This document shows, piece after piece, positions 1,719 to 62,145 of a DNA stretch of 64,000 nt. Each line of letters starts with the position of its first letter. Positions within the stretch are counted from its first letter, which is position 1. Made by a program: the position numbers and the translations under genes. Under the pieces are notes generated by a model, which saw only the letters and a list, made by a program, of their open reading frames with translations, was not told the origin of the DNA and made no database searches. The DNA is from Vicinamibacterales bacterium (GTDB lineage: Bacteria > Acidobacteriota > Vicinamibacteria > Vicinamibacterales > 2-12-FULL-66-21): the NCBI GenBank assembly GCA_038320555.1, contig JBBQEJ010000003.1, positions 10,587-74,586 of the forward strand, written 5' to 3'.

Positions 1719-1802
1719 CAGCTTCCAGCTTCCTTTCCAGTTTCCAGTTTCCAGCTTCCAGCTCCCAGCTTTCCGGCTTTCAGTTTCCAGTTTCAGTTTC
1801 CC
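1719..1802. repeat. Intergenic degenerate heptamer tandem array (YTTCCAG)n
   Basis: cttccag/tttccag/ctcccag units, about 10 copies. Confidence 0.85.
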
Positions 1803-1855
1803 GTTCGACCCCGAGCCCTGTACCCTTCCCGTATCCGCTTATAATGCAAGGACGC

Positions 1856-3523
1856 ATGAAAAGCGCGACGGCGGAAACGGACAAGCAGCGCTGGGAACGC
1901 GAGGTGCTCGAGCCAGCGCTCGAGAAGGCGCCCGAGCGCGCCGTGCCGTTCACGACCATTTCGGGCCGTCCGATCGGTCGCCTCTACACGCCCGACGATC
2001 TCTCCGGCTTTGATTACACCCGCGATCTGAACAACCCCGGAGAGTTTCCGTACGCGCGCGGCATTCATCCGTCTGGCTATTGCGCCAGGCTCTGGACGAT
2101 GCGGCAGTTTGCGGGGTTCGGAACGCCTGAGGAAACCAACGAGCGATATAAGACGCTGCTCGCAGCCGGCGGAACGGGCCTGAGCGTGGCATTCGACCTG
2201 CCGACGCTCATGGGACGCGATCCCGACCACGAGTTGTCGCTCGGGGAAGTGGGCAAGTGCGGCGTCAGCGTGGTGTCGCTGGCGGACATGGAGCGGCTTT
2301 TCGACGGCATTTCGCTCGGCGACATCACCTCGTCGATGACGATCAACTCGCCGGCGCCCATGATCTTCGCGATGTACCTCGTCGTGGCGGAGCGGCAGGG
2401 CGCTGACTGGCGCACGCTGTCGGGGACGATCCAGAACGACATTCTGAAGGAATTCATCGCGCAGAAGGAGTACATCTATCCGCCGCGCGAGTCGATGCGG
2501 CTCATTACCGACGTCTTCGCGTTCTGCGCGGAGGAGGTGCCGCGCTGGAACACGGTGTCGGTGAGCGGGTATCACATCCGCGAAGCGGGCTCGACCGCGC
2601 TCCAGGAACTGGCGTTCACCCTGCGTGACGGCATCGAGTACATCCAGTACGGAATCGACGCGGGCCTCGACGTGGACGACTTCGCGCCGCGGATCTCCTT
2701 CTTCTTCAATTCGCACAGCGACTTCTTCGAGGAGATTGCGAAATTTCGCGCCGCCCGCAAGATCTGGGCGGACGTCATGCGCGGTCGGTTCGGCGCCAAG
2801 GACGAGCGGTCGTGGAAGCTGCGGTTCCACACGCAGACGGCAGGGGTTTCGCTGACGGCGCAGCAGCCGTACAACAACGTCGTACGCACCGCCGTGCAGG
2901 CGCTTGCGGCCGTGCTGGGCGGCACCAACTCGCTCCACACCAATTCGCTCGACGAGGCGCTTGCGCTCCCGACGGCCGCGGCGGCGACCCTCGCGTTGCG
3001 GACGCAGCAGATCATCGCCCACGAGAGCGGCGTCACCAACATGGTCGATCCGCTTGGCGGGTCCTGGTTTCTCGAGCGGCTCACGCTCGACATGGAGCGC
3101 GGCGCGAAGGAATATTTCGCGACGATCGATCGCATGGGCGGCATGGTCGAAGCGATCGAACAGGGCTTCCCGCAGCGCGAGATTTCCGAGGCCTCCTACA
3201 AGTTCCAGCAGGCCGTCGAGCGGCGCGACAAGGTCATCGTCGGCGTCAACGATTACGTGCAGAACGACGAGCCGCCGTTCCCGATCCTGTACATCGACGA
3301 CAGCGCCGCCGACACGCAGCTCTCGCGGCTGAGAGACCTGAAGCGCACGCGCGACAACGACGCCGTTCGCAAGTCGCTCGATGCCCTGCGGACCGCCGCG
3401 CGCGGGCGCGCCAACACGATGTATCCACTGCTCGACTGCGTGCGTGCGTATGCCACGGTCGGCGAGATGTGTGATGCGTTGCGGGAGGTGTGGGGGGAGT
3501 ACGAGGAAGTGCCCTTGATCTAG
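1856..3523 (+). CDS. icmA: B12-dependent acyl-CoA mutase, large (substrate-binding) subunit; methylmalonyl-CoA mutase family with an isobutyryl-CoA mutase-like signature
   Basis: [53 protein letters not shown]; no B12-binding domain. Phe and Gln occupy the positions of MCM Tyr89 and Arg207. Confidence 0.85.
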
Positions 3524-3526
3524 GCT

Positions 3527-3642
3527 GAGTGCCAGGGGTGCCCGGAGTGCCACGGGTGCCAGGAGTGCGGGTGGCACCCTGAGCACTCGCAGCACCCAGG
3601 CACCCGAGGCGCTCATGGCACTCATGGCACTCATGGCACCCT
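3527..3642. repeat. Nonamer tandem array (GTGCCnnGG) followed by an inverted array (GGCACynnn)
   Basis: gtgccagggg tgcccggagt gccacgggtg ccagg ... ggcactcat ggcactcat ggcaccc; same unit as 31775-31908. Confidence 0.85.
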
Positions 3643-3650
3643 AGTTCTAT

Positions 3651-4058
3651 ATGCGCAAGATTCGCGTCGTCATTGCCAAGCCCGGGCTCGACGGCCACGA
3701 TCGTGGCGCGAAGGTGATCGCGCGTGCGTTGCGTGACGCGGGCATGGAAGTGATTTACACGGGGCTGCGTCAGACACCCGAACAGATCGTGGCGGCGGCG
3801 CTGCAGGAGGATGCCGATGCCATCGGGCTCTCGATCCTCTCGGGTGCGCACATGCACATCTGCCCGCGGGTCATGGCGTTGCTCAAGGAAAAAGAATTGG
3901 ACGATGTGCTCGTCGTCGTCGGCGGGATTATCCCGGACGTGGACATCCCGAAGTTGCGCGACGCGGGAATCAAGGGGATCTTTCTTCCGGGGAGCCCGAT
4001 GCAGGACATCATCACCTTCATTTCGGAACACGTGAGGCCGCGGGTGGAGCAGGTCTGA
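3651..4058 (+). CDS. icmB: Acyl-CoA mutase small, cobalamin-binding subunit
   Basis: [10 protein letters not shown] (DxHxxG), [16 protein letters not shown]. Confidence 0.88.
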
Positions 4059-5179
4059 TGCCGCACAAGTTGCTCCTCGCCGACGACAGCGTCACGATCC
4101 AGCGCGTGATCGAGCTCACGTTTGCCGACGAGGACGTGCAGGTCGTGGCCGTCGGGGACGGGAAGAAGGCGATTGCGAGCATCGAGGCGGATCGCCCCGA
4201 CATCGTGCTGGCCGACGTCGGGATGCCTGAACGCGACGGCTACGAGGTCGCGGCTTTCATCAAGGGCAACCCCCGGTTTGCCGACATCCCAGTGCTGCTG
4301 CTGACCGGCGCGTTCGAGCCGATCGACGAGACGCGTGCCCGGGCCGTCGGGTGCGACGGCGTGCTCGTCAAGCCCTTCGAGCCGCAGATGGTCATCAACC
4401 GCGTGAAAGATCTATTGGCCGGCCGTCACCCGGCCGGCTTATGGTCGGCAAGTCCCGCGGCGCAGGGGCCGACCCGGCAACCCCCACCGCCGGAGAAGTT
4501 CAATGTTCGGGCTATCGCGTCGCAGGCTGCCGCGCCTCAGGCCGCCGGGTCGCTGGAGGACTATTTCGACCGGCTCGACGCGGCCTTTGCCAATCTTGAC
4601 GGCGCGCCGGAGGTCCATGTCGCTCCGGCTGCGCCGGCGACACCACCTCGGGGCGGTCGCTCAGTTGATTTTGAGTCGGAACACGCTCCGCCCGCGTCCT
4701 CCGGACTCCCAGTGGATATCCTCGACGGGTGGGATCCCGAGTTGACCGGTGATCCGAAGAGGGTCGTACCGATAGGTGCGCGAAGTGCGCCGCCACCGCC
4801 GTCAACGTTTGCACCTGCCGCGCATCCGGCCGCCGTCGCGCAGGATCCGCCTGCGCCGCCGGTTACCGTGCCGTCGCCGGCGCATGTCCCCACGCCCGCT
4901 CAGTCCCCGACGTCAACACCGTCTGCGCCGGCTGCCGCTGCGCCCGTCCCGCCGATGCCCTCGCTGGCGGAGGCGTTTGCGGCGCTCCTGTCGGCCGAGC
5001 AATCGCATGCGATCGTGCCGTCGGCTCTCGGGGCGTCGAGCATGTCCGACGATGTGGTGGACGAGATCGTCCATCGTGTCATCGCCCGTCTCGGCGATCA
5101 GGTGGTGCGGGAGACGGTGCTTGACGTGGCCGAACGGCTCGTCCGCGAGGAAATCGAGCGAATCAAGGCGAACGAATGA
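4058..5179 (+). CDS. Response regulator, RomR-like (receiver domain + Pro/Ala-rich linker + acidic helical C-terminus)
   Basis: LLLADDS..LADVGMP..GYEV..KPFE receiver; C-terminus VVRETVLDVAERLVREEIERIK. Confidence 0.85.
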   Translation: MPHKLLLADDSVTIQRVIELTFADEDVQVVAVGDGKKAIASIEADRPDIVLADVGMPERDGYEVAAFIKGNPRFADIPVLLLTGAFEPIDETRARAVGCDGVLVKPFEPQMVINRVKDLLAGRHPAGLWSASPAAQGPTRQPPPPEKFNVRAIASQAAAPQAAGSLEDYFDRLDAAFANLDGAPEVHVAPAAPATPPRGGRSVDFESEHAPPASSGLPVDILDGWDPELTGDPKRVVPIGARSAPPPPSTFAPAAHPAAVAQDPPAPPVTVPSPAHVPTPAQSPTSTPSAPAAAAPVPPMPSLAEAFAALLSAEQSHAIVPSALGASSMSDDVVDEIVHRVIARLGDQVVRETVLDVAERLVREEIERIKANE

Positions 5180-5271
5180 AATTGGTGAGTTCGTGAATTG
5201 GCGAGTTGGCGAATAGGTGAATTCACCAGTCCATGAACTCGCTAATTCATGAATTCACGAACTCACCAATT
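5180..5271. repeat. Octamer tandem/inverted array (GGTGAATT-like) forming a long hairpin
   Basis: Perfect 20-bp inverted repeat AATTGGTGAGTTCGTGAATT (5180-5199) / AATTCACGAACTCACCAATT (5252-5271). Confidence 0.9.
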
Positions 5272-5296
5272 GCCACGTGGGGTACCATCAGCGTTT

Positions 5297-7897
5297 ATGC
5301 CTGCCGGCTTCGAGCTCAATCATCCCGTTCCCGAGAAACCAGCCCTCGAAGGGCTCGAACAGAAATGGATGGCGCGCTGGGAGGCGGACGGCGTTTACCG
5401 GTTCGATCGGAGCCGCCCGCGCGCCGAAGTCTTCTCGATTGACACGCCACCCCCCACCGTAAGCGGCTCGCTGCACGTGGGACATGTCTTCTCCTTCACC
5501 CACACCGACGTCGTCGCGCGGTTCCAGCGGATGCGGGGGAAGGCCGTGTTCTATCCGATGGGATGGGACGATAACGGGCTGCCGACCGAGCGCCGCGTTC
5601 AGAACTACTTCGGAGTCCGGTGCGATCCGACGCTGCCGTACGACCCGTTGTTTGCCGTTCCTGAGAAGCCGGGGAAGCACCCGATCCCTGTGTCGCGACC
5701 GAACTTCATCGAGCTGTGCGCAAGGCTCACCGCTGAGGACGAGAAAGTCTTCGAGGGCCTGTGGAGATGTCTCGGGCTGTCGGTTGACTGGGCGATGACG
5801 TACGCGACGATCGATCGGCGCGCCCAGCGCGTGTCGCAGCTGTCGTTCCTTCGACTGCTGCGCCGCAATCTCGCCTATCAGCTCGAGGCGCCGACCCTGT
5901 GGGATATTGACTTCCGCACGGCGGTTGCGCAGGCGGAGCTCGAAGACCGCGAGCAGCCGGGCGCCTACCATCGCATCCGGTTCAAATCCGCCGGCCGCGA
6001 CGGCTTCGTCGAAATCGATACGACGCGGCCCGAGTTGATTCCGGCATGCGTGGCGCTCGTGGCGCATCCCGACGACGAACGCTACAAGCCGCTTTTCGGG
6101 ACCGACGTGCTGACACCGCTCTTTGGCGTTCGCGTGCCGGTGAGGGCGCACGCGCTGGCGGATCCGGAGAAGGGCACCGGCGTCGCGATGATCTGCACCT
6201 TTGGCGACCTGACCGATGTGATCTGGTGGCGGGAGCTCGGACTACCGGTCCGCGCCGTGATCCAGACGAACGGAGCCCTCAAGCCGGTCACGTGGGGCGA
6301 GCGGGGGTGGGAATCTACCGACGCGGCGCGCGCGCAGGAACATTACGACCACCTTGCCGGGTTGTCCGCCGTCAAGGCCCGCGCCCGTATCGTCGACGAG
6401 TTGAAAGGGTCGGCTGATCTGATCGGTGAGCCGCGGCCGATCACGCATGCGGTAAAGTTCTACGAAAAGGGAGATCGTCCGCTCGAGATCGTGACGAGCC
6501 GCCAGTGGTTCGTGAAGACGATGCAGTTTCGCGAGGAGCTGCTGGCGCGCGGACGCGAGCTTCAGTGGCATCCGCAATACATGCGGGCGCGTTACGAGAA
6601 CTGGATCAACGGCCTCGCGGGGGATTGGTGCGTCAGCCGGCAGCGGTTCTTCGGGGTGCCGTTTCCGTTGTGGTACAAAGTGCGCGGCGACGGCTCGATT
6701 GACTTCGATGCGCGGCTCGTGCCGGCCGACGATCGGCTGCCCATTGATCCGTCCACGGACGTGCCGGAGGGCTATGTCGCGGGTCAGCGGAATCAGCCCG
6801 GAGGATTCGCGGGGGATCCGGACATCATGGACACGTGGGCGACCTCGTCGCTGACACCTCAGATCGCCTCGAGATGGGAAGAGGATCCCGATCTGTTCGC
6901 GCGTGTGTTCCCGATGGACGTGCGTCCCCAGGCCCACGACATCATTCGCACATGGCTGTTCGACACGGTGCTGCGCTCGCATTTCGAGTTCAACTCGCTG
7001 CCCTGGAAGCATGCGGCGATTTCCGGCTGGGTGCTCGATCCCGATCGGAAGAAGATGTCGAAATCGAAGGGCAATGTGGTGACCCCGATGGGCCTGCTCG
7101 AGGAGCACGGCTCGGACGGCGTCAGGTACTGGGCGGCGAGCGGCCGGCCCGGGACCGACACGGCCTTCGACACGGGGCAGATGAAGGTCGGACGCCGGCT
7201 CGCGATCAAGTTGCTCAACGCGTCGCGGTTCGTCCTGGCGAAACCCGAGCCGCACGGGCCGGTGACGGCTGCGGTGGATCGCGGCCTGCTCACGACGCTC
7301 GCGCGAATCGTGGACGAGTCGACCGTCGACTTCGAGGAGTTCAACTACACTCGCGTCCTGGAACGTGCGGAAACGTTCTTCTGGTCGTTCTGCGACGACT
7401 ATCTGGAGCTCGTCAAAGGACGCCGGTATGGCGATCAGGGAACGGCGCTCGCCGCGTCCGCGAACGGTGCCCTCCTGACGGCGCTCTCGACGATGCTTCG
7501 CTTGTTTGCACCGTTTCTTCCGTTCGTGACCGAAGAGGTCTGGTCGTGGTGGCGCGAGGGATCGATCCACCGATCGGCATGGCCCACGAGGGATGAAGTG
7601 CTGGAGCCATCCGGAGGGGCAGAGGACAACAACGGTGTGGACTCGCTGCAGTTTGCCGCGACCGTTCTCGGCGCGATCCGCAAGAAGAAGTCGGAAGAGC
7701 AGCGTCCGCTCAAGACGTTTGTCACCAAGGCGGTCATCCACGCGCCGGCCGCGCAGTTGGCCTTGCTGCCGGAGGTGGAGAGCGACCTGCGCGCATCCGG
7801 GCTGATCCGGCAGCTCGAGACGGCCGCGGCCGACACCCTGCACGTCGAGGTGGAACTGGCGCCGCCTGAGCTGTCCAGAGAGGAGCGCCCGTCATGA
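5297..7897 (+). CDS. valS: Valine--tRNA ligase
   Basis: IDTPPPTVSGSLHVGH, DWCVSRQRFFG, KMSKSKGN; start moved to ATG 5297 because the upstream ATG lies inside the repeat array. Confidence 0.96.
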   Translation: MPAGFELNHPVPEKPALEGLEQKWMARWEADGVYRFDRSRPRAEVFSIDTPPPTVSGSLHVGHVFSFTHTDVVARFQRMRGKAVFYPMGWDDNGLPTERRVQNYFGVRCDPTLPYDPLFAVPEKPGKHPIPVSRPNFIELCARLTAEDEKVFEGLWRCLGLSVDWAMTYATIDRRAQRVSQLSFLRLLRRNLAYQLEAPTLWDIDFRTAVAQAELEDREQPGAYHRIRFKSAGRDGFVEIDTTRPELIPACVALVAHPDDERYKPLFGTDVLTPLFGVRVPVRAHALADPEKGTGVAMICTFGDLTDVIWWRELGLPVRAVIQTNGALKPVTWGERGWESTDAARAQEHYDHLAGLSAVKARARIVDELKGSADLIGEPRPITHAVKFYEKGDRPLEIVTSRQWFVKTMQFREELLARGRELQWHPQYMRARYENWINGLAGDWCVSRQRFFGVPFPLWYKVRGDGSIDFDARLVPADDRLPIDPSTDVPEGYVAGQRNQPGGFAGDPDIMDTWATSSLTPQIASRWEEDPDLFARVFPMDVRPQAHDIIRTWLFDTVLRSHFEFNSLPWKHAAISGWVLDPDRKKMSKSKGNVVTPMGLLEEHGSDGVRYWAASGRPGTDTAFDTGQMKVGRRLAIKLLNASRFVLAKPEPHGPVTAAVDRGLLTTLARIVDESTVDFEEFNYTRVLERAETFFWSFCDDYLELVKGRRYGDQGTALAASANGALLTALSTMLRLFAPFLPFVTEEVWSWWREGSIHRSAWPTRDEVLEPSGGAEDNNGVDSLQFAATVLGAIRKKKSEEQRPLKTFVTKAVIHAPAAQLALLPEVESDLRASGLIRQLETAAADTLHVEVELAPPELSREERPS

Positions 7898-8787: not shown

Positions 8788-8791
8788 GCGG
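8768..8791. repeat. Short palindromic repeat (CCGCCGAAGCTACGGCGTAGGCGG) overlapping the nadC stop codon
   Basis: Imperfect palindrome; a related degenerate CCGCCTTCGC...AGCTACGGCG copy is at about 54597-54632. Confidence 0.45.
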
Positions 8792-8792
8792 C

Positions 8793-9602: not shown

Positions 9603-9624
9603 CCAGCGAGAACGCGGTAGAACC

Positions 9625-10407: not shown

Positions 10408-10434
10408 AGCTTGTACTCTCGCCTCATGCTTGTC

Positions 10435-10524: not shown

Positions 10525-10537
10525 ATCAAATGAACCC

Positions 10538-19639: not shown

Positions 19640-19699
19640 CGACGCGCGCCGCCGATCGCTCGCCGCAGTGGAGTTGGACGGAGGCGACGGAGACGAATT

Positions 19700-19771
19700 C
19701 ACCACAGAGGTAGCAGAGAAAACAGAGAAATTCCGCTTTTATTCTCTGCTAGCTCCGCGGACTCTGTGGTG
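19700..19771. repeat. Nonamer (nnCAGAGnn) tandem/inverted array
   Basis: CACCACAGAG/CTCTGTGGTG and TAGCAGAGAA/TTCTCTGCTA inverted pairs. Confidence 0.8.
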
Positions 19772-19862
19772 GGATCCGCCGTTGACTCTGTTCTCAGTCG
19801 CGAGCCGCGAAGCGAGAGTCGGGAATCGTCAGTAACGTGTATGATGCCGCCGGAGGCATGCC

Positions 19863-22824: not shown

Positions 22825-23027
22825 ACTGTGGAGTTGACGAAGGGAACGGATTCACAACGAAGAAACGAAGTAAACGGAGACGAACGAAGGAGAACACAGC
22901 CGTCAGGCGCCTCCCGCCGCCTGGGTCTACGTTTCCACGGCGGGAGCGCCTGGCGGCTGTTTCCTCGTTCGCCTTCGTTAGCTCCGTTCCTTCGTTTTGA
23001 ACCCGTATTCTTCGCCATCTCTGTTAG
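22823..23027. repeat. Long imperfect inverted repeat with nonamer (AACGAAGnn) units upstream of prfB
   Basis: aacgaagaa acgaagtaa acggagacg aacgaagg..acagccgtcaggcgcctcccgccg / cggcgggagcgcctggcggctgt..ccttcgttagctccgttccttcgtt. Confidence 0.85.
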
Positions 23028-24173: not shown

Positions 24174-24446
24174 GCGTCGCGGGTGATTACTGTCTTTGCG
24201 TGAGCGGTGAATGCGACCCAGCGTCACCGTGGTGAACGGGTTCGCAAACTCCCCTCGAGAGGTGACATCCGTTGCCGCGCAGAGGCGGGCGCGCCGCCAG
24301 CCCCGCGCATCTCGTTCTTGCTCCCGCGGACGTGGGGTCCCCGACGCGCACGCTTGCGCGTTGGGGTAGCGTTGCGCCCACTGCCCAGCTCGAAGCTGAT
24401 CGCGAGCACGTCGAAGGGTCAGCAATCGCCAATCAACAATTCACGT

Positions 24447-27483: not shown

Positions 27484-27518
27484 CCACATTCATGGCTTGT
27501 CCTTCCAAGTGGCTTGTC

Positions 27519-27582
27519 CTTCCGCCTGAAGGCGGAAGCCACGTGTTTTCTCACATTTGTGGCTTCCGCCTTCAGGCGGAAG
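27519..27582. repeat. Inverted pair of REP palindromes (same family as 10435)
   Basis: cttccgcctgaaggcggaagccac ... gtggcttccgccttcaggcggaag. Confidence 0.92.
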
Positions 27583-27621
27583 GGTCACCAAGGCGACGGA
27601 TACGCTCACGCGGAGAACCGG

Positions 27622-29847: not shown

Positions 29848-31773
<1,926 letters not shown>

Positions 31774-31774
31774 T

Positions 31775-31908
31775 GTCTGGGTGCCAGGGGGTGCCAAGGG
31801 TGCCAGGGGTGCCAGGGGTGCCACGCGTGCCGGAGGTGCAGCGGTGCTAGTAGGGCCACTCGTGGCACGCAGGGCGCCCGTGGCACCCAAGGCACCGATG
31901 GCACTCTG
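31775..31908. repeat. Nonamer tandem array (GGTGCCAGG) plus an inverted array between dnaK and dnaJ
   Basis: gtgccagggg gtgccaaggg tgccaggggt gcc ... tggcacgc..tggcaccc aaggcacc gatggcact. Confidence 0.88.
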
Positions 31909-31910
31909 AT

Positions 31911-36870: not shown

Positions 36871-36923
36871 CTGACAAGGGACACGGCAAAAGGGAACAGT
36901 CCCTTTTGCCTGTCCCTTGTCAG
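36871..36923. terminator. Hairpin between convergent genes (probable bidirectional terminator)
   Basis: CTGACAAGGGACA-C-GGCAAAAGGGA-acag-TCCCTTTTGCC-TGTCCCTTGTCAG. Confidence 0.75.
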
Positions 36924-37402
36924 AACCTCAGATTAATCCCCGCGTAGAAGCGCTGCGGCTTTGAGTGGAGCGGGGTGCCTCGCAACGTGAAGACGCGGTA
37001 GTCGAACCGGAGTCGAAGCGGTCCGACGAGCGACATCTTCACCCCGCCTCCGACGTTGATGCCGACGTTGGTCTCCGACGCGACGTCAAGCGTCTCGCGA
37101 AAGATCCCCCCGCCCGCGGTACCGTAGAACTGCAATCCGCCGATTGGAATGGGTGTCTGCACCAGCCCGTTGAACATGAACGTCCGCAAGCTGGGCGCCG
37201 CGTTGCTGAGGTCTTGGTTCGTGTGCGCGTACTCGAATTCGAACCCGGCGACCAGAAGCCCCATCCCGGCCGCGAATCCCTTCACCACGCGCGCCGAGGG
37301 AGTCGGCGTCGCGCCGAGGAAGGCCGTGACGTCCGCTGAGGCCGCCGACGGCAGGAAAAGCGAGATGGTAAAAGGGACGAGGAAAAAGAAACGGAGACGC
37401 AT
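36920..37402 (-). CDS. Small outer-membrane beta-barrel protein (OmpA/porin-like)
   Basis: Signal peptide from ATG 37402; alternating beta strands; C-terminal YAGINLRF (terminal Phe, BAM signal). Confidence 0.85.
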   Translation of the reverse strand: MRLRFFFLVPFTISLFLPSAASADVTAFLGATPTPSARVVKGFAAGMGLLVAGFEFEYAHTNQDLSNAAPSLRTFMFNGLVQTPIPIGGLQFYGTAGGGIFRETLDVASETNVGINVGGGVKMSLVGPLRLRFDYRVFTLRGTPLHSKPQRFYAGINLRF

Positions 37403-37420
37403 GTCATCAGCATAGCGCGT

Positions 37421-37464
37421 TCCTTGCTCCCTTTCCCTTTTCCCTTTTCCCTTTTCCCTTTTCT
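37421..37464. repeat. Heptamer tandem array (TCCCTTT)n
   Basis: tccctt tcccttt tcccttt tcccttt tcccttt. Confidence 0.85.
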
Positions 37465-37481
37465 CGGTACAGTCCGTCGTG

Positions 37482-38624
37482 ATGGACTTTCGGCTAACCG
37501 ACGAGCAGGAAATGCTCCGCCGCAGCGTGCGCGAGTTCGCGGAAGCGGAAATCCGCCCGCACGTGATGGAGTGGGACGAGTCGCAGCACTTTCCGATGGA
37601 TCTCCTGCCGAAGCTCGCCGCGCTGGGCCTGACGGGCATCCAGTTTCCTGAGCAATACGGCGGCGCGGGGATGTCGTCGGTTGATTACTGCATCTGCATC
37701 GAAGAGCTGGCGCGCGTGTGCCCAGCCGTCGCGCTGTCGGTTGCCGCACACAACGGCCTCTGCACCTCGCACATCGCGATGTTCGGCAGCGACGCGCAGA
37801 AATCGCAGTTCCTCCCGCGGCTGGTCGGCGGTGAGGTCCTCGGGGCCTGGGGCCTGACCGAGGCGAGCGCCGGCAGCGACGCGGCCGCCATGCGAACGAC
37901 CGCGGTGCGGCAGGGGGAATGCTGGGTCCTCAACGGATCGAAGACCTTTATTACCCACGGCCGCATCGGCGGCGTCATGGTTGTCGTGGCGATCACCGAT
38001 CGAACCAAAGGGCATCGGGGCATCTCGGCGTTCATTGTCGAGCACGGCACCCGCGGCATGAGCGCGGGGAAGAAAGAAAACAAGCTCGGCATGCGTGCGA
38101 GTGACACGAGCGAAGTCATCTTTCAGGAGTGCCGCGTGCCGGCCGCGCATCTGCTTGGCGAGGAAGGCCAGGGGTTCATCAATACGCTGCAGGTCCTCGA
38201 CGCGGGACGCATCGGGATCGCAGCCCTCTCGGTCGGCCTTGCTCAGGGGGCGTTCGAGGCGGCGCGCGCGTACGCCAAGGAAAGACGGCAATTCGGACAG
38301 CCGATTGCCGGGTTTCAGGCGATCCAGTGGAAGCTTGCCGACAACGCCACGCGGATCGAAGCCGCGCGCCTTCTGACCTATCGTGCCGCCTACCTCAAGG
38401 ACCGCGGCGCGCGAACGACCCGCGAGTCGTCGATGGCCAAGCTCTTCGCCAGCGAGATCGCCGTCAAGGCCGCCGACGACTGCGTGCAGATCCACGGGGG
38501 CTACGGATTCGTGAAGGACTATCCGGCCGAGAAATACTTTCGCGACGTGAAGCTCGTCACCATCGGCGAAGGCACCAGCGAAATCCAGCGCCTCGTCATC
38601 GCGCGCCAGCTGCTCGGACAGTGA
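37482..38624 (+). CDS. Acyl-CoA dehydrogenase (short/branched-chain type)
   Basis: [50 protein letters not shown]. Confidence 0.95.
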
Positions 38625-39592
38625 CGCGTCCGGACCTGTCTCAACGTGTGATGGAGGGAGACGCGCGGGCCGTCGCGCGCGCGATATCCCTGATCGAGGA
38701 CGAAACCCCCTCCGGCGCTGAATTGATCCGGCGCATCTTTCCGAGCACCGGCCGGGCCTATCTCGTTGGCATCACGGGGCCGCCCGGCTCCGGCAAGAGC
38801 ACCCTCGTCGATCGGTTGACATCCGAAATCCGCAAGACATCGAAGACGGTGGGCGTGGTGGCGGTCGATCCGACCAGTCCGTTCAGCGGCGGCGCTCTCC
38901 TGGGCGATCGGGTGCGGATGCAGGCGCACGCCGGCGATGCCGGTGTGTTCATCAGGAGCATGGCCACGCGCGGCCATCTGGGCGGGCTGGCCCGGGCCAC
39001 GTTTGAGGCGGCGCTCGTGCTCGACGCTGCCGGCAAGGACGTCGTGCTTATCGAAACCGTCGGGGTGGGACAGGACGAGATCGATATCGTGCGAACCGCC
39101 GATGTTTCGATCGTCACCCTGGTGCCTGGCTCAGGAGACGAGGTCCAGGCGCTCAAGGCCGGGATCATGGAAATCGCCGACATCTTCGTCGTCAACAAGG
39201 CGGATCGCGAAGGTGCAGACCGTACCGTGGCCTCGATCGAGGCCAACCTGTCCTTACAGACGTTCGCTCCGGGAGAATGGCGGCCACTGATCCTGAAGAC
39301 CGAGGCAATCACGGGACAGGGAGTACCGGAGCTTCTCGCGGCAATCGAGCGCTTTCGGGCGTACTCCGCCGATTCGCAAGGGCGCCGGCGCCGCGCCCGT
39401 GCCGAGTTTCGAGTGCGGGAGCTGCTCGCGCAGCGCTTCGTTCAGCACGTCGAGCAGGAGGTCCTCGCCGACGGTGAGCTCGGGGGGATACTCGATCGCA
39501 TCGCGGCGCGCGAGCTGGATCCGTATGCGGCGGTGGACGAGATTGTGCGGCGAACATTAACGGGTGCTCGCCTAGAGGTGCTTCCGCCTTAG
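38621..39592 (+). CDS. meaB: Acyl-CoA mutase-associated GTPase MeaB/ArgK
   Basis: [42 protein letters not shown]; GTG overlaps the ACAD stop. Confidence 0.94.
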
Positions 39593-42115: not shown

Positions 42116-42179
42116 CGCGATTCGCGACTCGCGGTTCGCGATTCGAAATCATCAATCAGCGTTCAGCAATCACAAATTC

Positions 42180-50439: not shown

Positions 50440-50533
<94 letters not shown>

Positions 50534-50535
50534 CG

Positions 50536-51207
50536 TTGTTCATCGAAGTCACCAACCTGACGAAAAGTTACCCGGTGGGCGGCACCCGGTTGACGGTGCT
50601 GAAGGGCCTGGACGTGTCGCTCGATCGGGGCGAGATGGTAGCTATCGTCGGCGCCTCCGGCGTCGGCAAGAGCACACTCCTTCACGTGATCGGCGGACTC
50701 GACGCGGTGGACGAGGGTACCGTTCGCATTGGCGAGACGATGCTGACCGGATTACCCGATGCCGACGTCGTCGCCTTTCGCAACCGCCACGTCGGATTCG
50801 TGTTCCAGTTTCACCACCTGCTGCCGGAATTCAGCGCGCTCGAGAACGCCGAGATGCCGATGCGAATCGCGCGGCGCCCGGCCGCCGAGCGGCACCGCCG
50901 CGCGGCGGACCTGCTTGCCCGGGTCGGCCTCGAAGCGCGGCTGGACCATCGCCCGGGCATGTTGTCGGGCGGCGAGCAGCAACGCGTCGCAATCGCGCGG
51001 GCGCTGGTCATGGACCCTACTCTGCTTCTTGCCGACGAGCCGACCGGCGACCTCGACGAACACACGGCCGACTCGCTGCACGAACTGCTCCGCGAGATGC
51101 ACCGGGAGCGCGGCCTCACGTCGATCATCGCCACGCACAATCCGCGCCTCGCGGCGGCGTGCGATCGGGTTCTGCGGCTGGAAGACGGAAGACTGAAACC
51201 CGCGTAA
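50536..51207 (+). CDS. lolD: Lipoprotein-releasing ABC transporter ATPase LolD
   Basis: GASGVGKST, GFVFQFHHLL, LSGGEQQR, ADEPTG; TTG start after the repeat. Confidence 0.92.
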   Translation: MFIEVTNLTKSYPVGGTRLTVLKGLDVSLDRGEMVAIVGASGVGKSTLLHVIGGLDAVDEGTVRIGETMLTGLPDADVVAFRNRHVGFVFQFHHLLPEFSALENAEMPMRIARRPAAERHRRAADLLARVGLEARLDHRPGMLSGGEQQRVAIARALVMDPTLLLADEPTGDLDEHTADSLHELLREMHRERGLTSIIATHNPRLAAACDRVLRLEDGRLKPA

Positions 51208-54595: not shown

Positions 54596-54746
54596 CCCGC
54601 CTTCGCACGGGTGGCAATGCATAGCTACGGCGCGGCTTCGGCAAGGCCGCTCGGTAGCCTTGCACGTCTAAAATCCAGTAAACTCATGGCTTGGCCTCTG
54701 CCCGGACATCCTGTGCGGGCCGGGGCAAGCGGTCCGCACCCCCTTT

Positions 54747-57554: not shown

Positions 57555-57577
57555 TATCTGAATTCTATTGCTCGACG

Positions 57578-57607
57578 TAGGGCGGGGTCCTGTGCCTCCC
57601 GCCCTAC
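57578..57607. repeat. GTAGGGCGGG...CCCGCCCTAC palindrome (third REP-like family or terminator)
   Basis: gtagggcggggtcctgtgcctcccgccctac. Confidence 0.65.
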
Positions 57608-57628
57608 ATTTCTGAAGGGGATTGTTCG

Positions 57629-58276
57629 ATGAAATTGTTGAAGAAGATGCTTGTGATGAGTGCGATGGGCGTGCTGCTGGCCGCCACGCGAGGATACGCG
57701 CAGGCGCCCGCCGCGCCGGCGGGGCAGAAACCTCCCGCGACTCCGCCGGCCGCCGTAGCCCCGGCCCCGGCGCCGACCCCGGCCCCGAAGCCGCCCGCGC
57801 CATTCCCTGAGGGCGCCAAGTTCGCCTTCATCGACATCCAGGCCGTTGCGAGCAACTCCGCCGAAGGTAAGGCGGCGACCGCGAAGCTCGACGAGCTCCG
57901 AAAGAAGAAGAACGGCGAGCTCCTCGCCAAGCAGACCTCGCTCAAGGCGATGCAGGACAAGTTGAACGCCGGCGGGTCGGTCATGAGCGATCAGGCGCGC
58001 GGACAGCTCGAAAAGGACATCGAGAAGGCCAGCCGCGATCTGCAGTTCGCGCAGCAGGACGCGCAAACCGAGGTCACGGATATGACCAACCAGCTTCAGG
58101 GGGATTTTCAGGAGAAGCTCAACCCGGTCATCGAGCAGCTGCGCACGGATAAGGGTCTGCTGATGATCTTCAGCATCCGCGATTCGGGTGTCGTCTCGGC
58201 GGAGCCCGGACTCGATCTCTCGGTCGAAGTCATCAAGCGGTTCGACGCCGCCAACAAGCCCGCACCGAAGAAGTAG
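57629..58276 (+). CDS. skp: OmpH/Skp periplasmic chaperone
   Basis: Signal peptide, KFAFIDIQ, coiled coil, DLSVEVIKR; follows bamA. Confidence 0.9.
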   Translation: MKLLKKMLVMSAMGVLLAATRGYAQAPAAPAGQKPPATPPAAVAPAPAPTPAPKPPAPFPEGAKFAFIDIQAVASNSAEGKAATAKLDELRKKKNGELLAKQTSLKAMQDKLNAGGSVMSDQARGQLEKDIEKASRDLQFAQQDAQTEVTDMTNQLQGDFQEKLNPVIEQLRTDKGLLMIFSIRDSGVVSAEPGLDLSVEVIKRFDAANKPAPKK

Positions 58277-58280
58277 GACG

Positions 58281-58354
58281 CTAGAGTTCTAAAGTTCTAG
58301 AGTTCTAGAGTTCTCGGGTTGGAACTCTAGAACTTTAGTAGAACTCTGTGAACC
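58281..58354. repeat. Octamer tandem array (TAGAGTTC) plus an inverted array
   Basis: Perfect 17-bp inverted repeat CTAAAGTTCTAGAGTTC (58289-58305) / GAACTCTAGAACTTTAG (58322-58338). Confidence 0.9.
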
Positions 58355-58374
58355 CTCTGCTACACTCCCTTCCA

Positions 58375-59640
58375 GTGTCGTCGATAAACATACCCCAGGT
58401 TCTCGATCGCCTCTGCTCCCGGTACCCGTCTGCGCTTGTGGACGCGGTGACGGAGCACGAGCCCGGGCGCCGCGTCGTGGCGTACAAGAACGTCACCGTC
58501 AGCGAAGAATTCTTCCAGGGGCACTTTCCCGGCGCGCCGTTGATGCCGGGCGTGTTGATGATTGAGTCGCTCGCGCAGGTCGCGACCATCCTGCTCACCC
58601 AGTCCGGCGAAGGCGCGGCTACTCACGCATATCTGCGGGGCGTCGACAACGCGAAGTTCCGGCTGCCCGTCGTACCCGGCGATCGCCTTCGGCTCGAGGT
58701 GACGATGGGACCGCGGCGCGCTCGTCTTGTGCGCACGCATGCGAAGGCATTCATCGGCGAGAACGTCGCGGCCGAGGCGGACCTGCTGATAGGCGTCGTG
58801 ATGGAGCCGCGCACGGGCGGCCGGGCGGGGGCCACGATTGACCCGAGCGCGGTCGTGCATCCGGGCGCGGTGATCGGCGCCGGCACCATCGTCGGCCCGC
58901 ACGCGGTCATTGGCGAACATGTACGCCTCGGACGCGACTGCCGCGTCGGCGCTTCGTCGGTCGTCGAAGGGCCATCCGAGATCGGCGACGGCAATGAGAT
59001 CTTTCCGTTGGTGTCGATCGGCCTGATCCCCCAGGATTTGAAGTTTCGCGGCGAACCGTCGAAACTCGTGGTGGGCAATCGAAACGTCTTTCGCGAGTTC
59101 GTGACGATCCACCGGGGGACGGCAGGGGGAGGGGGCGTCACCGAGATCGGCGATCACAACGTCTTCATGGCGTATGCGCACATCGCGCATGATTGCCATG
59201 TCGGGAACCACACGATTTTCGGGAACGCCGCCACGCTCGGCGGGCACGTTACGGTCGAGGACTACGCGACCATCAGCGCGTTTTCAGGCGTCCACCAGTT
59301 CTGCCGCGTGGGGAAGCACGCCTTCATTGGGGGCTTTTCGGTCATCACGAAAGATGCGCTGCCGTTTGCGAAGACCGTGGGCAACCGCGCGCGCATCTAC
59401 GGCTTGAATACGATCGGTCTCGTGCGGCGGAAGTTTTCGTCAGACTCGATCACGAAACTTCGCCGCGCCTACCGCTACCTGCTGCACTCCAACACGAGCC
59501 GCGCGCTCGCCCAGATCGAACGCGACCCGTCCCTCAAGTGCGACGAAGTGCAGTATGTCGTCGACTTCATCCGTACGTCGAGCCGCGGTGTCGGGTTGCG
59601 CCGGCCGAGCCGGCGCCTCGAAGAAGTGGTAGACGAATAA
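58375..59640 (+). CDS. lpxA: Fused FabZ (3-hydroxyacyl-ACP dehydratase) - LpxA (UDP-GlcNAc O-acyltransferase)
   Basis: N-terminus RYP..LVD, KNVT, FQGHFP..PGVL.IE (FabZ); C-terminus hexapeptide repeats, PQDLKF, TIHRGT, HIAHDC, VHQF (LpxA); one uninterrupted frame. Confidence 0.93.
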   Translation: MSSINIPQVLDRLCSRYPSALVDAVTEHEPGRRVVAYKNVTVSEEFFQGHFPGAPLMPGVLMIESLAQVATILLTQSGEGAATHAYLRGVDNAKFRLPVVPGDRLRLEVTMGPRRARLVRTHAKAFIGENVAAEADLLIGVVMEPRTGGRAGATIDPSAVVHPGAVIGAGTIVGPHAVIGEHVRLGRDCRVGASSVVEGPSEIGDGNEIFPLVSIGLIPQDLKFRGEPSKLVVGNRNVFREFVTIHRGTAGGGGVTEIGDHNVFMAYAHIAHDCHVGNHTIFGNAATLGGHVTVEDYATISAFSGVHQFCRVGKHAFIGGFSVITKDALPFAKTVGNRARIYGLNTIGLVRRKFSSDSITKLRRAYRYLLHSNTSRALAQIERDPSLKCDEVQYVVDFIRTSSRGVGLRRPSRRLEEVVDE

Positions 59641-59687
59641 GGTGCTTCCGCCTGAATAAGGTGCTTCCGCCTGAAGGCGGAAGCTAC
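59635..59687. repeat. REP palindrome with a tandem 19-bp duplication that includes the lpxA stop codon
   Basis: gaataaggtgcttccgcct x2, then gaaggcggaagctac. Confidence 0.9.
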
Positions 59688-59737
59688 AGGAGTCGGGCAG
59701 CCAGGCGGCCATCGCTCGCGAGTCGCCGGCAGTGCCG

Positions 59738-60169
59738 TTACGGATGCGCGATCGTGACGGTGAAATTGACGGGCGTCGCCGTGACCTTTCCAGTGTCGTA
59801 GACACGAGCACAGAGGCTCGCCGCAGACGTCACCGTGCCCGTGACCACTGCCGTCTGAGTGGCGGCGTCGTTGGCGATCACGATCTGGCAGGCGGATCCG
59901 GTCCAGGTGCCCAGGCTCAACCCGATGGGCAGGGTTGCGTCTCCGCTCACCGAGGTCAGAGTCAGCGTGATGGTACCGGCCGCCGTGGCCGTAAACGGAA
60001 ATGTTCCGGCGCCATTCATGTTCAGCGTGCCCGTGAACGTTTCGGTCACCGTCGGCGTCGTGGTGGTAGTGGTGGTCGGAGTCGTGACAGTCGTGTTGTT
60101 GCTACTGCCGCAGCCTGCCGAGGTCGTGGCGAGCGCGAGCAGCAAGATCCCTGGTAGCAAACGGCGCAT
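59738..60169 (-). CDS. Small Thr-rich lipoprotein with a beta-sandwich (PPC-like) domain
   Basis: AAGGAGAGG RBS; MRRLLPGILLLALATTSAG-C lipobox; two further Cys. Confidence 0.85.
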   Translation of the reverse strand: MRRLLPGILLLALATTSAGCGSSNNTTVTTPTTTTTTTPTVTETFTGTLNMNGAGTFPFTATAAGTITLTLTSVSGDATLPIGLSLGTWTGSACQIVIANDAATQTAVVTGTVTSAASLCARVYDTGKVTATPVNFTVTIAHP

Positions 60170-60204
60170 TTCCTCTCCTTGAAGATCAAAAGGGCGAGCT
60201 TCCA

Positions 60205-60220
60205 AGCAACAGGCATTCCG
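60205..60220 (-). promoter_or_regulatory. Putative sigma-54 promoter of the lipoprotein gene
   Basis: Minus strand CGGAATGCCTGTTGCT (GG-N10-GC), 35 nt upstream of the ATG. Confidence 0.5.
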
Positions 60221-60355
60221 CATCGCCCTTCCAATAATACGTCGTAAACCACCCTGGCACCTCGGCCGCCGTCTCCGTCTGGTGACTTCGTGACGTGGAT
60301 CGAGGACGATGGGCAGGGGCGCGGCCTCCATCTGATAGACTTCTTTTCTTCGCGC

Positions 60356-61192
60356 ATGAGCAAAATCGGTCTCATCGCCGGCAACGGCAGATTTCCCTTT
60401 CTCGTGCTGCAGGGGGCTCGCAGCCTGGGCCACGACGTCACGATTGTGGCAATCAAGGAAGAGGCGTTCCCCGATCTCGAGGGATCGGCGAGAGAGGCGC
60501 GGGCCGGCTTTCACTGGGTCTCGCTCGGTCAGCTTGGCGCGTGCATCAGGATTCTCAAAGCGGCCGGCGTCTCGCAGGCCGTGATGGCCGGCCAGGTCAA
60601 GCACGTGAAGATCTTCTCCGGCATCATGCCGGATCGCGCGCTGCTGTCGGTGCTGACACGGCTCAGGGCGCGGAATACGGATGCCCTGATCTCGGCCGTC
60701 GCCGACGTCATGCGCAAGGAAGGGATCGAACTGCTCGATTCAACGACGTTCCTGCAGCCACTGCTCGCGGGTGCCGGCACGTTGACCGAGCGGATGCCGA
60801 ACGAGGAGGAACATGAGGATTTCGCATTTGGTTACCGCATGGCGGACGCCATTGCCGCGCTCGACATCGGCCAGACCATTGCGGTAAAGCACAAGGCCGT
60901 GGTTGCCGTCGAAGCGATGGAGGGAACCGACGAGGTCATCGGCCGGGCGGGGCATCTGGCGGGCCCGGGTGTGCGGGTCGTCAAAGTCGCAAAGCCGAAG
61001 CAGGACATGCGTTTCGACGTGCCGGTCATCGGGATCGCCACCATTCAGGCCATGCGCGTTGCGGGCGCCTCTGCGCTGTCGGTCGATGCCGAGCGCACAC
61101 TCGTGCTCGACGGCGAGCATGTGATCGCTTCGGCGAACGAAGCCGGCATCGCGATCATCGGTCGGCCGCGGAGCGATCAACGTGCCGGGTGA
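60356..61192 (+). CDS. lpxI: UDP-2,3-diacylglucosamine diphosphatase LpxI
   Basis: [39 protein letters not shown]. Confidence 0.94.
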
Positions 61193-62114
61193 TCGCATTC
61201 GTGTCGCCGTGATCGGCGTCGGGCACCTCGGGCGGCATCACGCACGCATCCTGAGCGGCATGGAAGGAGCGGAGCTTGTCGCGGTCGTCGACACGGATCC
61301 GGAGCGCGCCGCGGCGGCATCGTCGGCGACCGGGGCGCCGGCGCACGGAGACTTCCGCGAGATCATGGGCGGAGTGGACGCGGTGACGGTCGCCGTGCCC
61401 ACCGAGCGTCACCGGGACGTTGCGCTGCCGTTTCTCGAGCGCGGCACAGCGGTTCTGGTCGAGAAACCGATGGCGCGGTCGCTGACCGAGGCTGACGAGC
61501 TGGTCGCGGCGTCGCGCGCGTCCGGCGCGACGCTTGCCGTGGGCCAGACCGAGCGATACAACCCTGCGGTCGCCGCCGTGATGCCGCTGGTCACCTCGCC
61601 GCGGTTCATCGAGGTGCACCGGCTTGGCGCGTTTCCCGACCGAAGCCTCGACATCGACGTCGTCTTCGACCTGATGATTCACGATCTCGATATCATTCTC
61701 GCGCTCGTGCGATCGGAGGTCGAGTCGATCGAGGCGGTCGGGGTGCCGGTGCTGACGTCGAAGTACGATATTGCCAACGCCCGGCTCCGCTTCGCGTCGG
61801 GCTGCATCGCAAACGTGACGGCCAGCCGGATCAGTAGAGAACGCGTGCGGAAGATCCGCTTTTTCCAGCCAGACGCCTACCTGTCGATCGATTACGCGGC
61901 GCAGGAGGTCGAGGGATGGCGGCTCGTGCGGCGCGACGGCGCGCGTCCCGGGATCGAAGGCGGCCCGCTGCCCGTCGCGCGCGATGAGCCGCTGCGGCGC
62001 GAGCTCGCCGATTTCATCCGCGCCGTGCGCACGAAGACCGCGCCGCTCGTCGACGGCGACGCCGGCCGCCGCGCACTGGAATTGGCAACGCGGGTTGCCG
62101 AGAAAATGGGATGA
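61182..62114 (+). CDS. Gfo/Idh/MocA oxidoreductase (GnnA-like)
   Basis: [33 protein letters not shown]; overlaps lpxI. Confidence 0.88.
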
Positions 62115-62145
62115 GCTGACAGCCGGAAGCTGGAAGCTGTTAATA

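Follow-up and report, generated by a model that had tools for sequence, protein, structure and literature searches.

The intervening sequence (IVS) in the 23S rRNA gene of Coxiella has terminal inverted repeats that form a 28-bp stem, with an S23p open reading frame (ORF) in the loop; it contains three or four tandem heptamers, the number depending on the strain, and RNase III cuts within the stem, where the first repeat begins (Warrier et al., PMC4990558). The solved S23p structure is from Xanthomonas (PMC4990558). Rehm et al. reported intergenic heptamers that are overrepresented in Xanthomonas (GGGAATC) and Nostoc (GGGGAYT), with 70 to 75 cases in Xanthomonas of convergent arrays on opposite strands, inverted pairs that are able to form stem-loops (PMC4692102). 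The same paper cites tandem heptanucleotides of the cyanobacterium Calothrix, likewise intergenic, and states that there was no detailed literature on heptameric repeats at that time. Here, we describe intergenic arrays of short tandem units, many of them followed by their own reverse complement, in a 64,000-nucleotide stretch of the genome of a soil acidobacterium of the Vicinamibacterales (assembly GCA_038320555.1; G000 below; 5.75 Mb, 340 contigs, 64% G+C). The whole of this stretch, G000:C3:10587-74586, is called the window.

With confidence a little better than even, we read the arrays as gene-less palindromic elements that resemble repetitive extragenic palindromes (REPs) and REP doublet hairpins (REPINs), have an architecture of the IVS type, and probably act as RNase III or mRNA-stability hairpins. 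The interpretation given in a first-pass annotation of the window is partly supported by the results that follow.

Results

Arrays were scanned genome-wide with Tandem Repeats Finder (TRF) on this one genome, and coding and noncoding DNA were separated with a rough codon-bias gene caller (82% coding, ~18% noncoding). Under these conditions, TRF returned 1,172 rows of period 7, with 836 in the noncoding part. Noncoding DNA held 784 period-7 arrays versus 28 to 45 in five dinucleotide shuffles. Arrays of period 8 (190 versus 43 to 57) and period 9 (243 versus 37 to 52) were enriched 4-fold and 5-fold, respectively, and those of period 14 ~15-fold. The observation of arrays is confirmed, and chance is excluded as the source of their abundance, which lies far above that in shuffled DNA, the comparison named as a check in the first-pass annotation. 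Inverted partners were scored for noncoding arrays of period 6 to 10 with at least 2.8 copies, a partner being three units with at least 80% identity within 130 nt. Such partners were present at 274 of 934 arrays, compared with 8 for a reversed-unit control and 19 for a complemented-unit control. The merged total was 729 loci, comprising 194 hairpin loci by this strict test and 535 loci without a strict partner; some 160 to 190 loci are clear hairpins. The hairpins folded with medians of 83 nt, -35.5 kcal/mol, and 28 bp, values that were computed in TRF-defined spans and are underestimates where TRF called one arm only; 121 of 193 loci had at least 20 bp. A search for more distant partners (130 to 2,000 nt) returned mostly neighboring same-family hairpins around ordinary genes and was not used for enclosed genes.

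Within the window, the first-pass annotation had pointed to about a dozen gaps with arrays of 7 to 9 nt, most followed by their own reverse complement and most lying between co-oriented genes, and had proposed that they form a shared class. All of this was upheld. Tandem units were present at 13 of the 13 listed loci (TRF and sequence inspection), and 9 folded as strong tandem-then-inverted hairpins, with minimum free energy (MFE) z-scores of -4.4 to -12.9; the other four, starting at 1719, 24395, 42116, and 62115, were one-armed or degenerate (z of -1.1 to -2.4). Arrays occupied 12 of the 32 gaps of at least 30 nt, with genes taken from Pfam: 11 co-oriented, 1 convergent, and 0 of 4 divergent. 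Eight of the 13 loci start within 5 nt of the preceding stop codon, and several (3524-3645, 31774-31910, and 58279-58347) extend across the spacer as far as the following start codon. Genome-wide, one class with a common architecture was found.

The annotation had also supposed that the unit differs at each locus. This did not hold genome-wide, where a limited set of families recurs: AACCGCG formed 74 arrays, AAACTGG 73, AGCCGCC 51, AATCAGC 51, AACTGGC 47, and AATCGCG 43, and at least 15 unit families coexist. The order of the two arms was fixed within families in 158 of 159 hairpins (for example, AGTTTCC first in 24/24, ATTGCTG in 20/20, and AGTTGCC in 17/17). Arm order is identical when read on either strand and so belongs to the element itself rather than reflecting which way the DNA is transcribed. 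A Shine-Dalgarno-like second arm was rejected as the cause of arm order, since the purine-rich arm comes first in the ACAGGAG and AAAAGGG families. Family termini were conserved (GA-ATTGCTG...CAGCAAT-TC), and loops varied in sequence and length.

In the CCAG family, the hexamer cores pair (CCAGTT with AACTGG) and the seventh base is free. The majority seventh bases were complementary between arms in only 6 of 53 hairpins, whereas independent arms would give ~7; the arms are not copies of each other unit for unit. The mirrored variant units from which copying between arms, or selection to pair, had been proposed are real at 5180 (outer 20 bp) and 58289 (17/17 complementary). As a general property, mirroring was rejected: 8 of 107 informative hairpins beat a unit-order permutation (p ≤ 0.05) versus 5.35 expected, in an ungapped test of limited power. 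Since the seventh base is uncorrelated and the arms are internally uniform, each arm homogenizes on its own, a signature of slippage, and the core stays complementary. Each arm also changes copy number on its own.

Some members of this class enclose a gene. PF05635 (TIGR02436) is a four-helix bundle family related to Avd of diversity-generating retroelements, and PF13366 (TIGR04256) is the GxxExxY family. This genome contains four matches to PF05635 and two to PF13366 (one of the latter at G000:C36:10292-10699), and inspection showed that 6 of 6 genes have a tandem array in one flank, with its reverse complement in the opposite flank. In a flank test, which aligned the left flank of 300 nt locally with the reverse-complemented right flank and required a score of at least 35, 5 of these 6 genes passed, compared with 21 of 3,614 for all genes and 4 of 812 for genes of up to 200 amino acids (aa). 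The link of both gene families to such arrays, which the annotation had named for other genomes, was thereby borne out. Flanked loci were also frequent elsewhere: 23 of 28 PF05635 loci in 17 relatives, 18 of 28 PF13366 loci in relatives, 8 of 12 PF05635 loci in a Blastocatellia and a Versatilivoraceae metagenome-assembled genome (MAG), and 12 of 15 loci in three further genomes, one labeled Betaproteobacteria. The arms around PF05635 genes were built of 7-mers (CCAGTTN, GCTTCCA, CGCGGTT, ATTGCTG, and others) or 10-mers (GGTTCTACNG). Those around PF13366 genes were built of purine-rich 8- to 9-mers (ACGGAGNN, ACGAAGNN, GGAGATCA, and GCGCAGAGN), the unit types of the window hairpins at 19677 and 22826, the latter matched by the arms around PF13366 genes in relatives. 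Arm order was the same in gene-bearing and gene-less members of a family in 4 of 4 testable cases.

Two other genes were enclosed in the same manner. An 88-aa Smr-domain ORF resembling the MutS2 C terminus (G000:C21:14047-14425) lies between (AGGAGAC)4 and (TGTCTCC)4, which are ACAGGAG arrays, and may represent a third kind of enclosed gene. A tyrosine transposase similar to REP-associated tyrosine transposases (RAYTs) and TIRYTs (G000:C34:36183-37152) lies between tandem and inverted arrays of the 11-nt unit GGGGTCAGACC. PF05635, PF13366, and one RAYT-like gene, the enclosed genes suggested for checking at the outset, were all found between inverted arrays. Four PF01797 matches are present in the genome. 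Only the C34 gene has inverted flanks, and these consist of the 11-nt unit, not of heptamer families. Its score against the NCBIfam model REP_Tyr_transpos was 67.9 bits, below the cutoff of 80. The 11-nt unit is of the GGGGTCTGACCCC type seen upstream of the 1719 array, where small palindromes of this type occupy window positions 1662-1715. The motif GGGGTCTGACC occurs 16 times per strand in the genome. Acidobacterial "TIRtrons" carry a GGGGWSAS motif, which the GGGGTCAGACC unit fits (PMC3733652).

Within the genus, same-class PF05635 loci are syntenic orthologs; the CAATCNG class alone links nonsyntenic loci of different lineages (G000 with G032). The CCAG-class gene is intact in G001, G006, G007, G009, G010, G011, and G022, truncated in G000, interrupted by an in-frame TAG in G012, and reduced to a remnant in G003, G004, and G008; it was not found in G002, G005, or G021, the last a genome that is 70% complete. 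A blastn search detected no remnants of gene-bearing elements in gene-less loops, and the internal regions of gene-bearing elements are single-copy in the genome. The proposal of an enzyme encoded elsewhere is not supported: the enclosed genes are single-copy, lie at chromosomal positions that are constant throughout the genus, and are in some cases broken although arrays are still abundant.

Hairpin loci were present in 138 of the 1,567 gaps between co-directional genes, in 36 of 475 between convergent genes, and in only 12 of 542 between divergent genes. The median distance from the upstream stop codon to the array was 14 nt, and a quarter of the arrays began within 3 nt; the elements often extended to the following start codon. 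Of the 194 hairpin loci, only 20 have TTTT on either side at a distance of up to 12 nt, so these hairpins are not classical terminators. This position fits the role of mRNA hairpin that had been suggested from the window. The possibility that the arrays are intrinsic terminators (a GC-rich stem plus a U-tract) was rejected on this ground and because hairpins lie between almost all ribosomal-protein cistrons. Genes upstream of hairpins had a higher codon bias (median, 0.277 versus 0.232; Mann-Whitney p = 1e-13). The most surprising single observation in this genome concerns the ribosomal-protein operon, a Pfam-verified str-S10-spc-alpha run (S12, S7, EF-G, S10, L3 ... S4, RpoA) at G000:C11:36074-56461, whose spacers contain 16 two-armed hairpins and 6 single arrays. 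Most of these hairpins begin 1 to 4 nt past the stop codon. Public RNA runs yielded small shares, contigs only, mostly of dnaK of relatives. One contig, from run X1 (possibly a DNA run), joins window positions 31772 and 31912 through 5 other letters and is read as the empty dnaK-dnaJ site of a relative.

Three orthologous gaps were compared among relatives, as the first-pass annotation had proposed, and all showed presence-absence variation and unit switching. The closest DnaK loci in named genomes belong to Vicinamibacterales and other Acidobacteriota MAGs (80 to 91% identity). The dnaK-dnaJ comparison covered 36 of 80 loci, namely, the ones nearest to the window and a small number from other classes. 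Tandem-then-inverted arrays were present in 9 of the 36 relatives, each with its own unit (GATCTCA, GATTGTT, GGCGCTC, GGCTCTA, GAGGATCT, GGTGATT, GAGGATTT, GCAGATT, and CCCAACT), and 15 of the 36 gaps were 33 nt or shorter and held no array. The gap between the split methylmalonyl-CoA mutase genes was compared in 14 genomes of the same genus, with flanks 78 to 84% identical. No array was present in G002, where the stop and start codons overlap, or in G005, which has a plain GC hairpin. CCAGTTN hairpins occupied this gap in G001, G007, G012, and G021, CCAGCTN arrays in G003, G004, G009, and G006 (one arm only in G006), CAGCTNN in G008, and composites in G011 and G022. In G010 (G010:C4:575873-577040, locus L140), a 967-nt insert, taken for an insertion sequence, lies within the element and carries an integrase-like ORF on the opposite strand, as judged by eye. 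In the response regulator (RR)-ValRS gap, an 8-nt GGTGAATT hairpin was common to G000, G001, G006, and G012, other families were present in 4 genomes, and 5 genomes had none.

Pattern counts showed that each genome has its own dominant CCAG variant. Counts of CCAGCT and CCAGTT, respectively, were 74 and 344 in G000, 388 and 3 in G004, 226 and 32 in G006, and 287 and 692 in G007, with 0 for the reversed-pattern controls. The mutase-gap array matched the dominant variant in 8 of the 9 genomes with a CCAG[T/C]T array there, the exception being G021. That the variant in this gap mostly follows the dominant variant of the genome points to sequence information passing between loci, by reinsertion or conversion, and not only to change in place. 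Slippage plus template switching, the generating mechanism proposed at first, agrees with the copy-number changes and uniform arms but alone fails on the fixed arm order and on these dominant-variant gaps.

The loci of the window are listed in Table 1. Its genes are of housekeeping type by Pfam: split methylmalonyl-CoA mutase, ValRS-like, ArgRS, DnaK/DnaJ, LysRS, LolE/LolD-like, ClpB-like, BamA, Skp, FabZ-LpxA, LpxI, and UbiD. An Rfam 15 scan of the whole window at the gathering score gave 0 matches.

Table 1. Array loci of the window (positions count from its first nucleotide; z-scores compare the MFE with 100 dinucleotide shuffles).
Position	Strand	Array	Arms and fold	Context
1719..1805	.	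One-armed array, ~11 copies of CAGYTTC (CCAGYTT "first-arm" type)	TRF period 7; no inverted partner; z -2.4	Collagen-repeat gene / methylmalonyl-CoA mutase large subunit
3524..3645	.	Hairpin, 9-nt units (GTGCCAGGG)n then (CCATGGCAC/CCTGGCAC)n	Arms 38 nt, 82% complementary; MFE -79.2; z -6.3	Fills gap from mutase large subunit stop (3523) to B12-binding subunit ATG (3651)
5180..5271	.	Hairpin, 8-nt units (AATTGGTG/AGTTCGTG)n then (AATTCACG/AACTCACC)n	MFE -47.9; z -10.6	Begins at base after response-regulator stop; upstream of ValRS-like gene
19677..19800	.	Hairpin, purine-rich 8-9-nt units (GACGGAG / CACAGAG / AACAGAG) plus complement	Arms 19700-19729 and 19742-19771; z -4.6	NfeD / SPFH gap
22826..23012	.	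~190-nt hairpin (AACGAAGNN)n ... (CTTCGTTNN)n	GC-rich central stem; MFE -107; z -12.9	Starts 2 nt past Lnt stop; upstream of release-factor gene
24395..24446	.	Degenerate half-array (CAATCAN)n, "second-arm" type	Weak; z -1.1	Convergent gap, release-factor gene / PBP1
31774..31910	.	Hairpin, 9-nt units (GGGTGCCAG)n then (TGGCACCCA)n	Arms 41 nt, 80% complementary; MFE -97.4; z -9.0	Occupies whole dnaK-dnaJ spacer
36871..36923	.	Compact hairpin, AAGGGAC / AAAAGGG units plus complement	Arms 23 nt, 83% complementary; MFE -42.8; z -10.6	10 nt past stop of hypothetical gene
37354..37465	.	Hairpin, degenerate GGAAAAG-type units then (TCCCTTT)5	TRF TCCCTTT, 5.3 copies; z -4.4	Upstream of acyl-CoA dehydrogenase gene
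42116..42176	.	Two adjoining half-arrays, (CGCGATT)4 (quasi-palindromic unit) and (CAATCAN)n	Weak fold; z -1.3	Fills PNP-PfkB spacer
50441..50534	.	Hairpin (AGTTTCC)4 ... (CTGGNAA)4, CCAGTTN family (most abundant); family-listing name C3:61028-61118	Arms 30 nt, 87% complementary; MFE -56.8; z -8.7	lolE-like (stop 50438) / lolD-like
58279..58347	.	Hairpin, 8-nt units (CTAGAGTT)4 then complement	17/17 complementary; MFE -35.8; z -5.8	Fills skp - fabZ/lpxA spacer
62115..62147	.	Short one-armed array (GGAAGCT), ~2.7 copies, "second-arm" type of CCAGCTT family	z -2.4	Directly past GFO-oxidoreductase stop

Longest-ORF starts overrun hairpins or upstream genes at 5249-5277, 50494-50539, 61984-62148, and 38129-38640. 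The ValRS-like, LolD-like, UbiD, and MeaB genes probably begin further downstream than the longest ORFs suggest. ORF starts reach into hairpins, and the arrays therefore inflate ORF calls.

Other features of the window stand apart from the arrays. A 288-aa ORF at 783-1649 carries collagen triple-helix repeats (Pfam E value, 2e-25), with TRF periodicities of 9, 27, 54, and 81 nt. One 430-aa ORF at 58348-59640 combines FabA/FabZ-like dehydratase, LpxA-type hexapeptide, and acyltransferase domains and looks like a fabZ-lpxA fusion. An unrelated repeat family consists of palindromes of the form CTTCCGCCT-n(1-5)-AGGCGGAAG, often in inverted doublets; the genome has 70 of them, 6 being inside the window (10505, 27519, 27563, 39598, 41128, and 59664). 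The doublet at 27518-27583 has 25-nt arms (27518/27559) that are 100% complementary, and another copy lies in the G010 mutase gap.

Discussion

On the reading we favor, the arm of each element is a tandem array of a 7- to 11-nt unit, and the window loci are gene-less members residing in operon spacers. Larger members carry a small gene between the arms: PF05635 with 7- or 10-nt units, PF13366 with 8- to 9-nt units, a RAYT/TIRYT-like gene with an 11-nt unit, or Smr with ACAGGAG. The elements would be of the same kind as the ORF-bearing IVS of 23S rRNA, but located in the spacers of mRNAs rather than in rRNA. Once transcribed, they would form long imperfect stems without a U-tract, which could serve as RNase III substrates, as barriers to 3' exonucleases, or both. 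If the stems are cut by RNase III or block 3' exonucleases, insertion between cistrons would be tolerated or even useful, and a gene for RNase III is present in the genome (G000:C68:5578-5961). Spread and replacement could proceed by REPIN-like copying or conversion on hairpin DNA by a putative enzyme. RNase III processing, mRNA stabilization, and the copying mechanism are what we infer from this computational analysis.

Several observations weigh against this reading. The 23S rRNA genes of five relatives contain no large insertion (2,989 to 3,001 nt versus a 2,925-position model), and the link to the IVS is therefore architectural only. No 23S rRNA gene was found in this assembly, and direct membership in the IVS was rejected on both grounds. 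No target-site duplication was seen between filled and empty gaps, although flanks that are 78 to 84% identical may obscure one, and no recent identical copies of elements were seen, loops and internal regions being unique. Exact units were common to adjacent loci in 8 of 338 cases, compared with 7.5 expected, which gives no local clustering. The enclosed genes have the look of loci that have long been resident and are inherited vertically, and CCAG array counts are high despite a truncated, TAG-bearing, remnant, or unfound gene (G000, 418; G012, 543; G003, 475; G004, 391; G021, 411). Copying between loci would have to be deduced from patterns in the DNA. RNase III may act poorly on the stems, which have regular mismatches at each seventh base. 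Finally, the public RNA runs contain only dnaK fragments of relatives, so we infer the transcription, processing, and benefit of the hairpins.

Among the alternatives, the one that survives best, although we consider it unlikely, is that the arrays are cis-acting RNA or DNA sites kept by selection: a host factor would bind the heptamer cores, the hairpins would set mRNA processing, stability, or translational coupling between cistrons, and unit switching would reflect coevolution with the factor in each genome rather than mobility. Motif recognition fits the conserved hexamer core of each arm (CCAGTT or AACTGG), with its free seventh base and lack of covariation, better than perfect pairing does, and each genome has its own dominant variant. 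The elements also directly adjoin stop and start codons, are present in almost all ribosomal-protein spacers, and follow genes of high codon bias; in the empty G002 mutase gap the stop and start codons overlap, and a hairpin could replace such coupling. However, no individual hairpin is essential, since many orthologous gaps are empty in close relatives. At least 15 unit families in one genome would need many factors, the binding factor is only hypothetical, and one-armed or decayed copies are common, with more than 500 loci lacking a strict partner.

It is still less probable that the enclosed proteins are the engines of the system, a true analogue of REPIN-RAYT in which PF05635 proteins and PF13366 proteins of the PD-(D/E)XK type would recognize the unit arrays on their own flanks and would copy, maintain, or process gene-less hairpins belonging to that family. 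PF13366 does belong to a nuclease superfamily (PMC3424549). The families that flank the enclosed genes are the most abundant ones of this genome (AACCGCG ranks first, the CCAGTTN group second and fifth, and AATCAGC joint third, and the leading 8-mer and 9-mer are also among them), and their arm order agrees with that of gene-less members. The PF05635 tree compared with unit class gave 8 label changes (minimum, 7; shuffle mean, 14.8; 0 of 200 shuffles as low), and the CAATCNG class pairs nonsyntenic loci of G000 and G032. Same-class loci within the genus are, however, syntenic orthologs, so the tree signal mostly reflects vertical descent. The arm variant equals the dominant variant of the genome in 6 of 8 genomes, but this match is not significant. 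The fewest CCAG arrays were counted where the ortholog was not found (G002, 20; G005, 35) or is only a remnant (G008, 25), yet arrays are abundant with a truncated (G000), TAG-bearing (G012), remnant (G003 and G004), or unfound (G021, 70% complete) gene. On this mixed evidence, dependence of CCAG array abundance on an intact PF05635 gene was not accepted. We also know of no biochemical activity for PF05635 or PF13366, which counts against such a role. Arrays are abundant without an intact gene and internal regions are single-copy; therefore, a need for the enclosed proteins is unsupported.

A purely local origin, with slippage in place and a template-switched partner but neither descent between loci nor function, is very improbable: differing copy numbers with internally uniform arms, one-armed arrays such as that in the G006 mutase gap, and loops unrelated between loci agree with it, but the same few units recur at hundreds of loci, local switching should yield both arm orders rather than one in 158 of 159 hairpins, termini are conserved, orthologous gaps take on the dominant variant of the genome, and in several classes of Acidobacteriota particular gene families are surrounded by this architecture.

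Returning to elements of the IVS type, we offer a broader proposal only tentatively. Such elements could be a widespread class of hairpins with short-tandem-repeat arms, tolerated because the cell cuts or absorbs them at the level of RNA; PF05635/TIGR02436 and PF13366/TIGR04256 would be element encoded, each tied to its own unit class, and gene-less forms would have colonized hundreds of Vicinamibacterales spacers, including nearly every ribosomal-protein spacer, and shaped the processing of operon mRNAs. If so, IVS-type elements would be more than a peculiarity of rRNA genes. Independently of this proposal, two of the commonest bacterial families of unknown function, the "four helix bundle protein" and the "GxxExxY protein," gain a reproducible genomic signature: a gene set in a hairpin loop between arms made of tandem-repeat arrays, with a gene-less version in hundreds of operon spacers. 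Three observations that have been treated separately, namely, heptamer overrepresentation in some bacteria, REP-like palindromes, and rRNA intervening sequences, are thereby linked. For annotation, the elements explain long, seemingly empty spacers and overextended ORF calls in Acidobacteriota. They raise the questions of whether the enclosed proteins bind or cut their own arrays and whether RNase III breaks polycistronic mRNAs, including those for ribosomal proteins, into units. In the literature searched, which included few subscription journals and no supplements and is not proof of absence, we found no account of such arrays in Acidobacteriota and no link of PF05635 or PF13366 to inverted tandem arrays outside rRNA.

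Compared with known systems, the elements share with MITEs (miniature inverted-repeat transposable elements) a small, noncoding, inverted-repeat form in intergenic DNA and presence-absence variation between relatives. They differ in having no conserved internal sequence, no target-site duplication that could be seen, and no matching transposase. A MITE identity was rejected on the grounds that loops are unrelated within a family and that the internal regions of gene-bearing elements have no other copy in the genome. The TAACTGA heptamers of Beggiatoaceae likewise form abundant intergenic arrays near coding regions, with a proposed posttranscriptional role, but they are direct repeats just upstream of start codons, with 1 inverted case in 170 (PMC4679880), whereas the arrays described here follow stop codons and include many inverted pairs.

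The heptamers of Xanthomonas and Nostoc are similar in being overrepresented between genes, in forming partly inverted pairs, and in varying in length between related strains while the type is kept (PMC4692102). There, one G-rich unit was studied as a former of G-quadruplexes (G4s), whereas most of the families found here are unable to form G4s: the dominant units AACCGCG, AAACTGG, AATCAGC, and AACTGGC have no G-runs, and CCAGTTT, ATTGCTG, and CGCGGTT cannot form G4s. Fixed arm order, enclosed genes, and the filling of operon spacers are features of the present elements that the accessible text of PMC4692102 does not describe.

The likeness to the 23S IVS lies in the long stem of terminal inverted repeats, the four-helix-bundle ORF in the loop, the strain-variable tandem heptamers, and the existence of ORF-less versions and of ORFs that are often decaying (PMC4990558). 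In this genome, too, terminal inverted repeats form a long stem with or without a PF05635 ORF in the loop. The IVS, however, lies in helix 25 or 45 of 23S rRNA, whereas the window elements all lie between protein genes; the arms here are longer arrays (3 to 18 units) on both sides, with hundreds of gene-less copies and many families; and RNase III cleavage, published for Coxiella, is here a prediction.

The closest analogue in population behavior is the family of REPs, bacterial interspersed mosaic elements (BIMEs), and REPIN-RAYT systems (PMC3116915, PMC3337134, and PMC3733652). REPs are single palindromes of 20 to 40 nt with a GTAG or CGTC tag (PMC3733652), whereas the present elements consist of tandem 7- to 10-nt units with no such tag in the family listings, and the genes enclosed by heptamer families are not tyrosine transposases, the RAYT/TIRYT-like gene on C34 having the other, 11-nt unit. 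In both systems, high-copy extragenic palindromes form inverted-doublet hairpins downstream of genes and inside operons, the prevailing family and its abundance differ between strains, and a single-copy gene is bordered by inverted flanking repeats. The 729 loci of this genome, with their partnered arrays, are likewise high-copy extragenic imperfect palindromes that often occur as inverted doublets.

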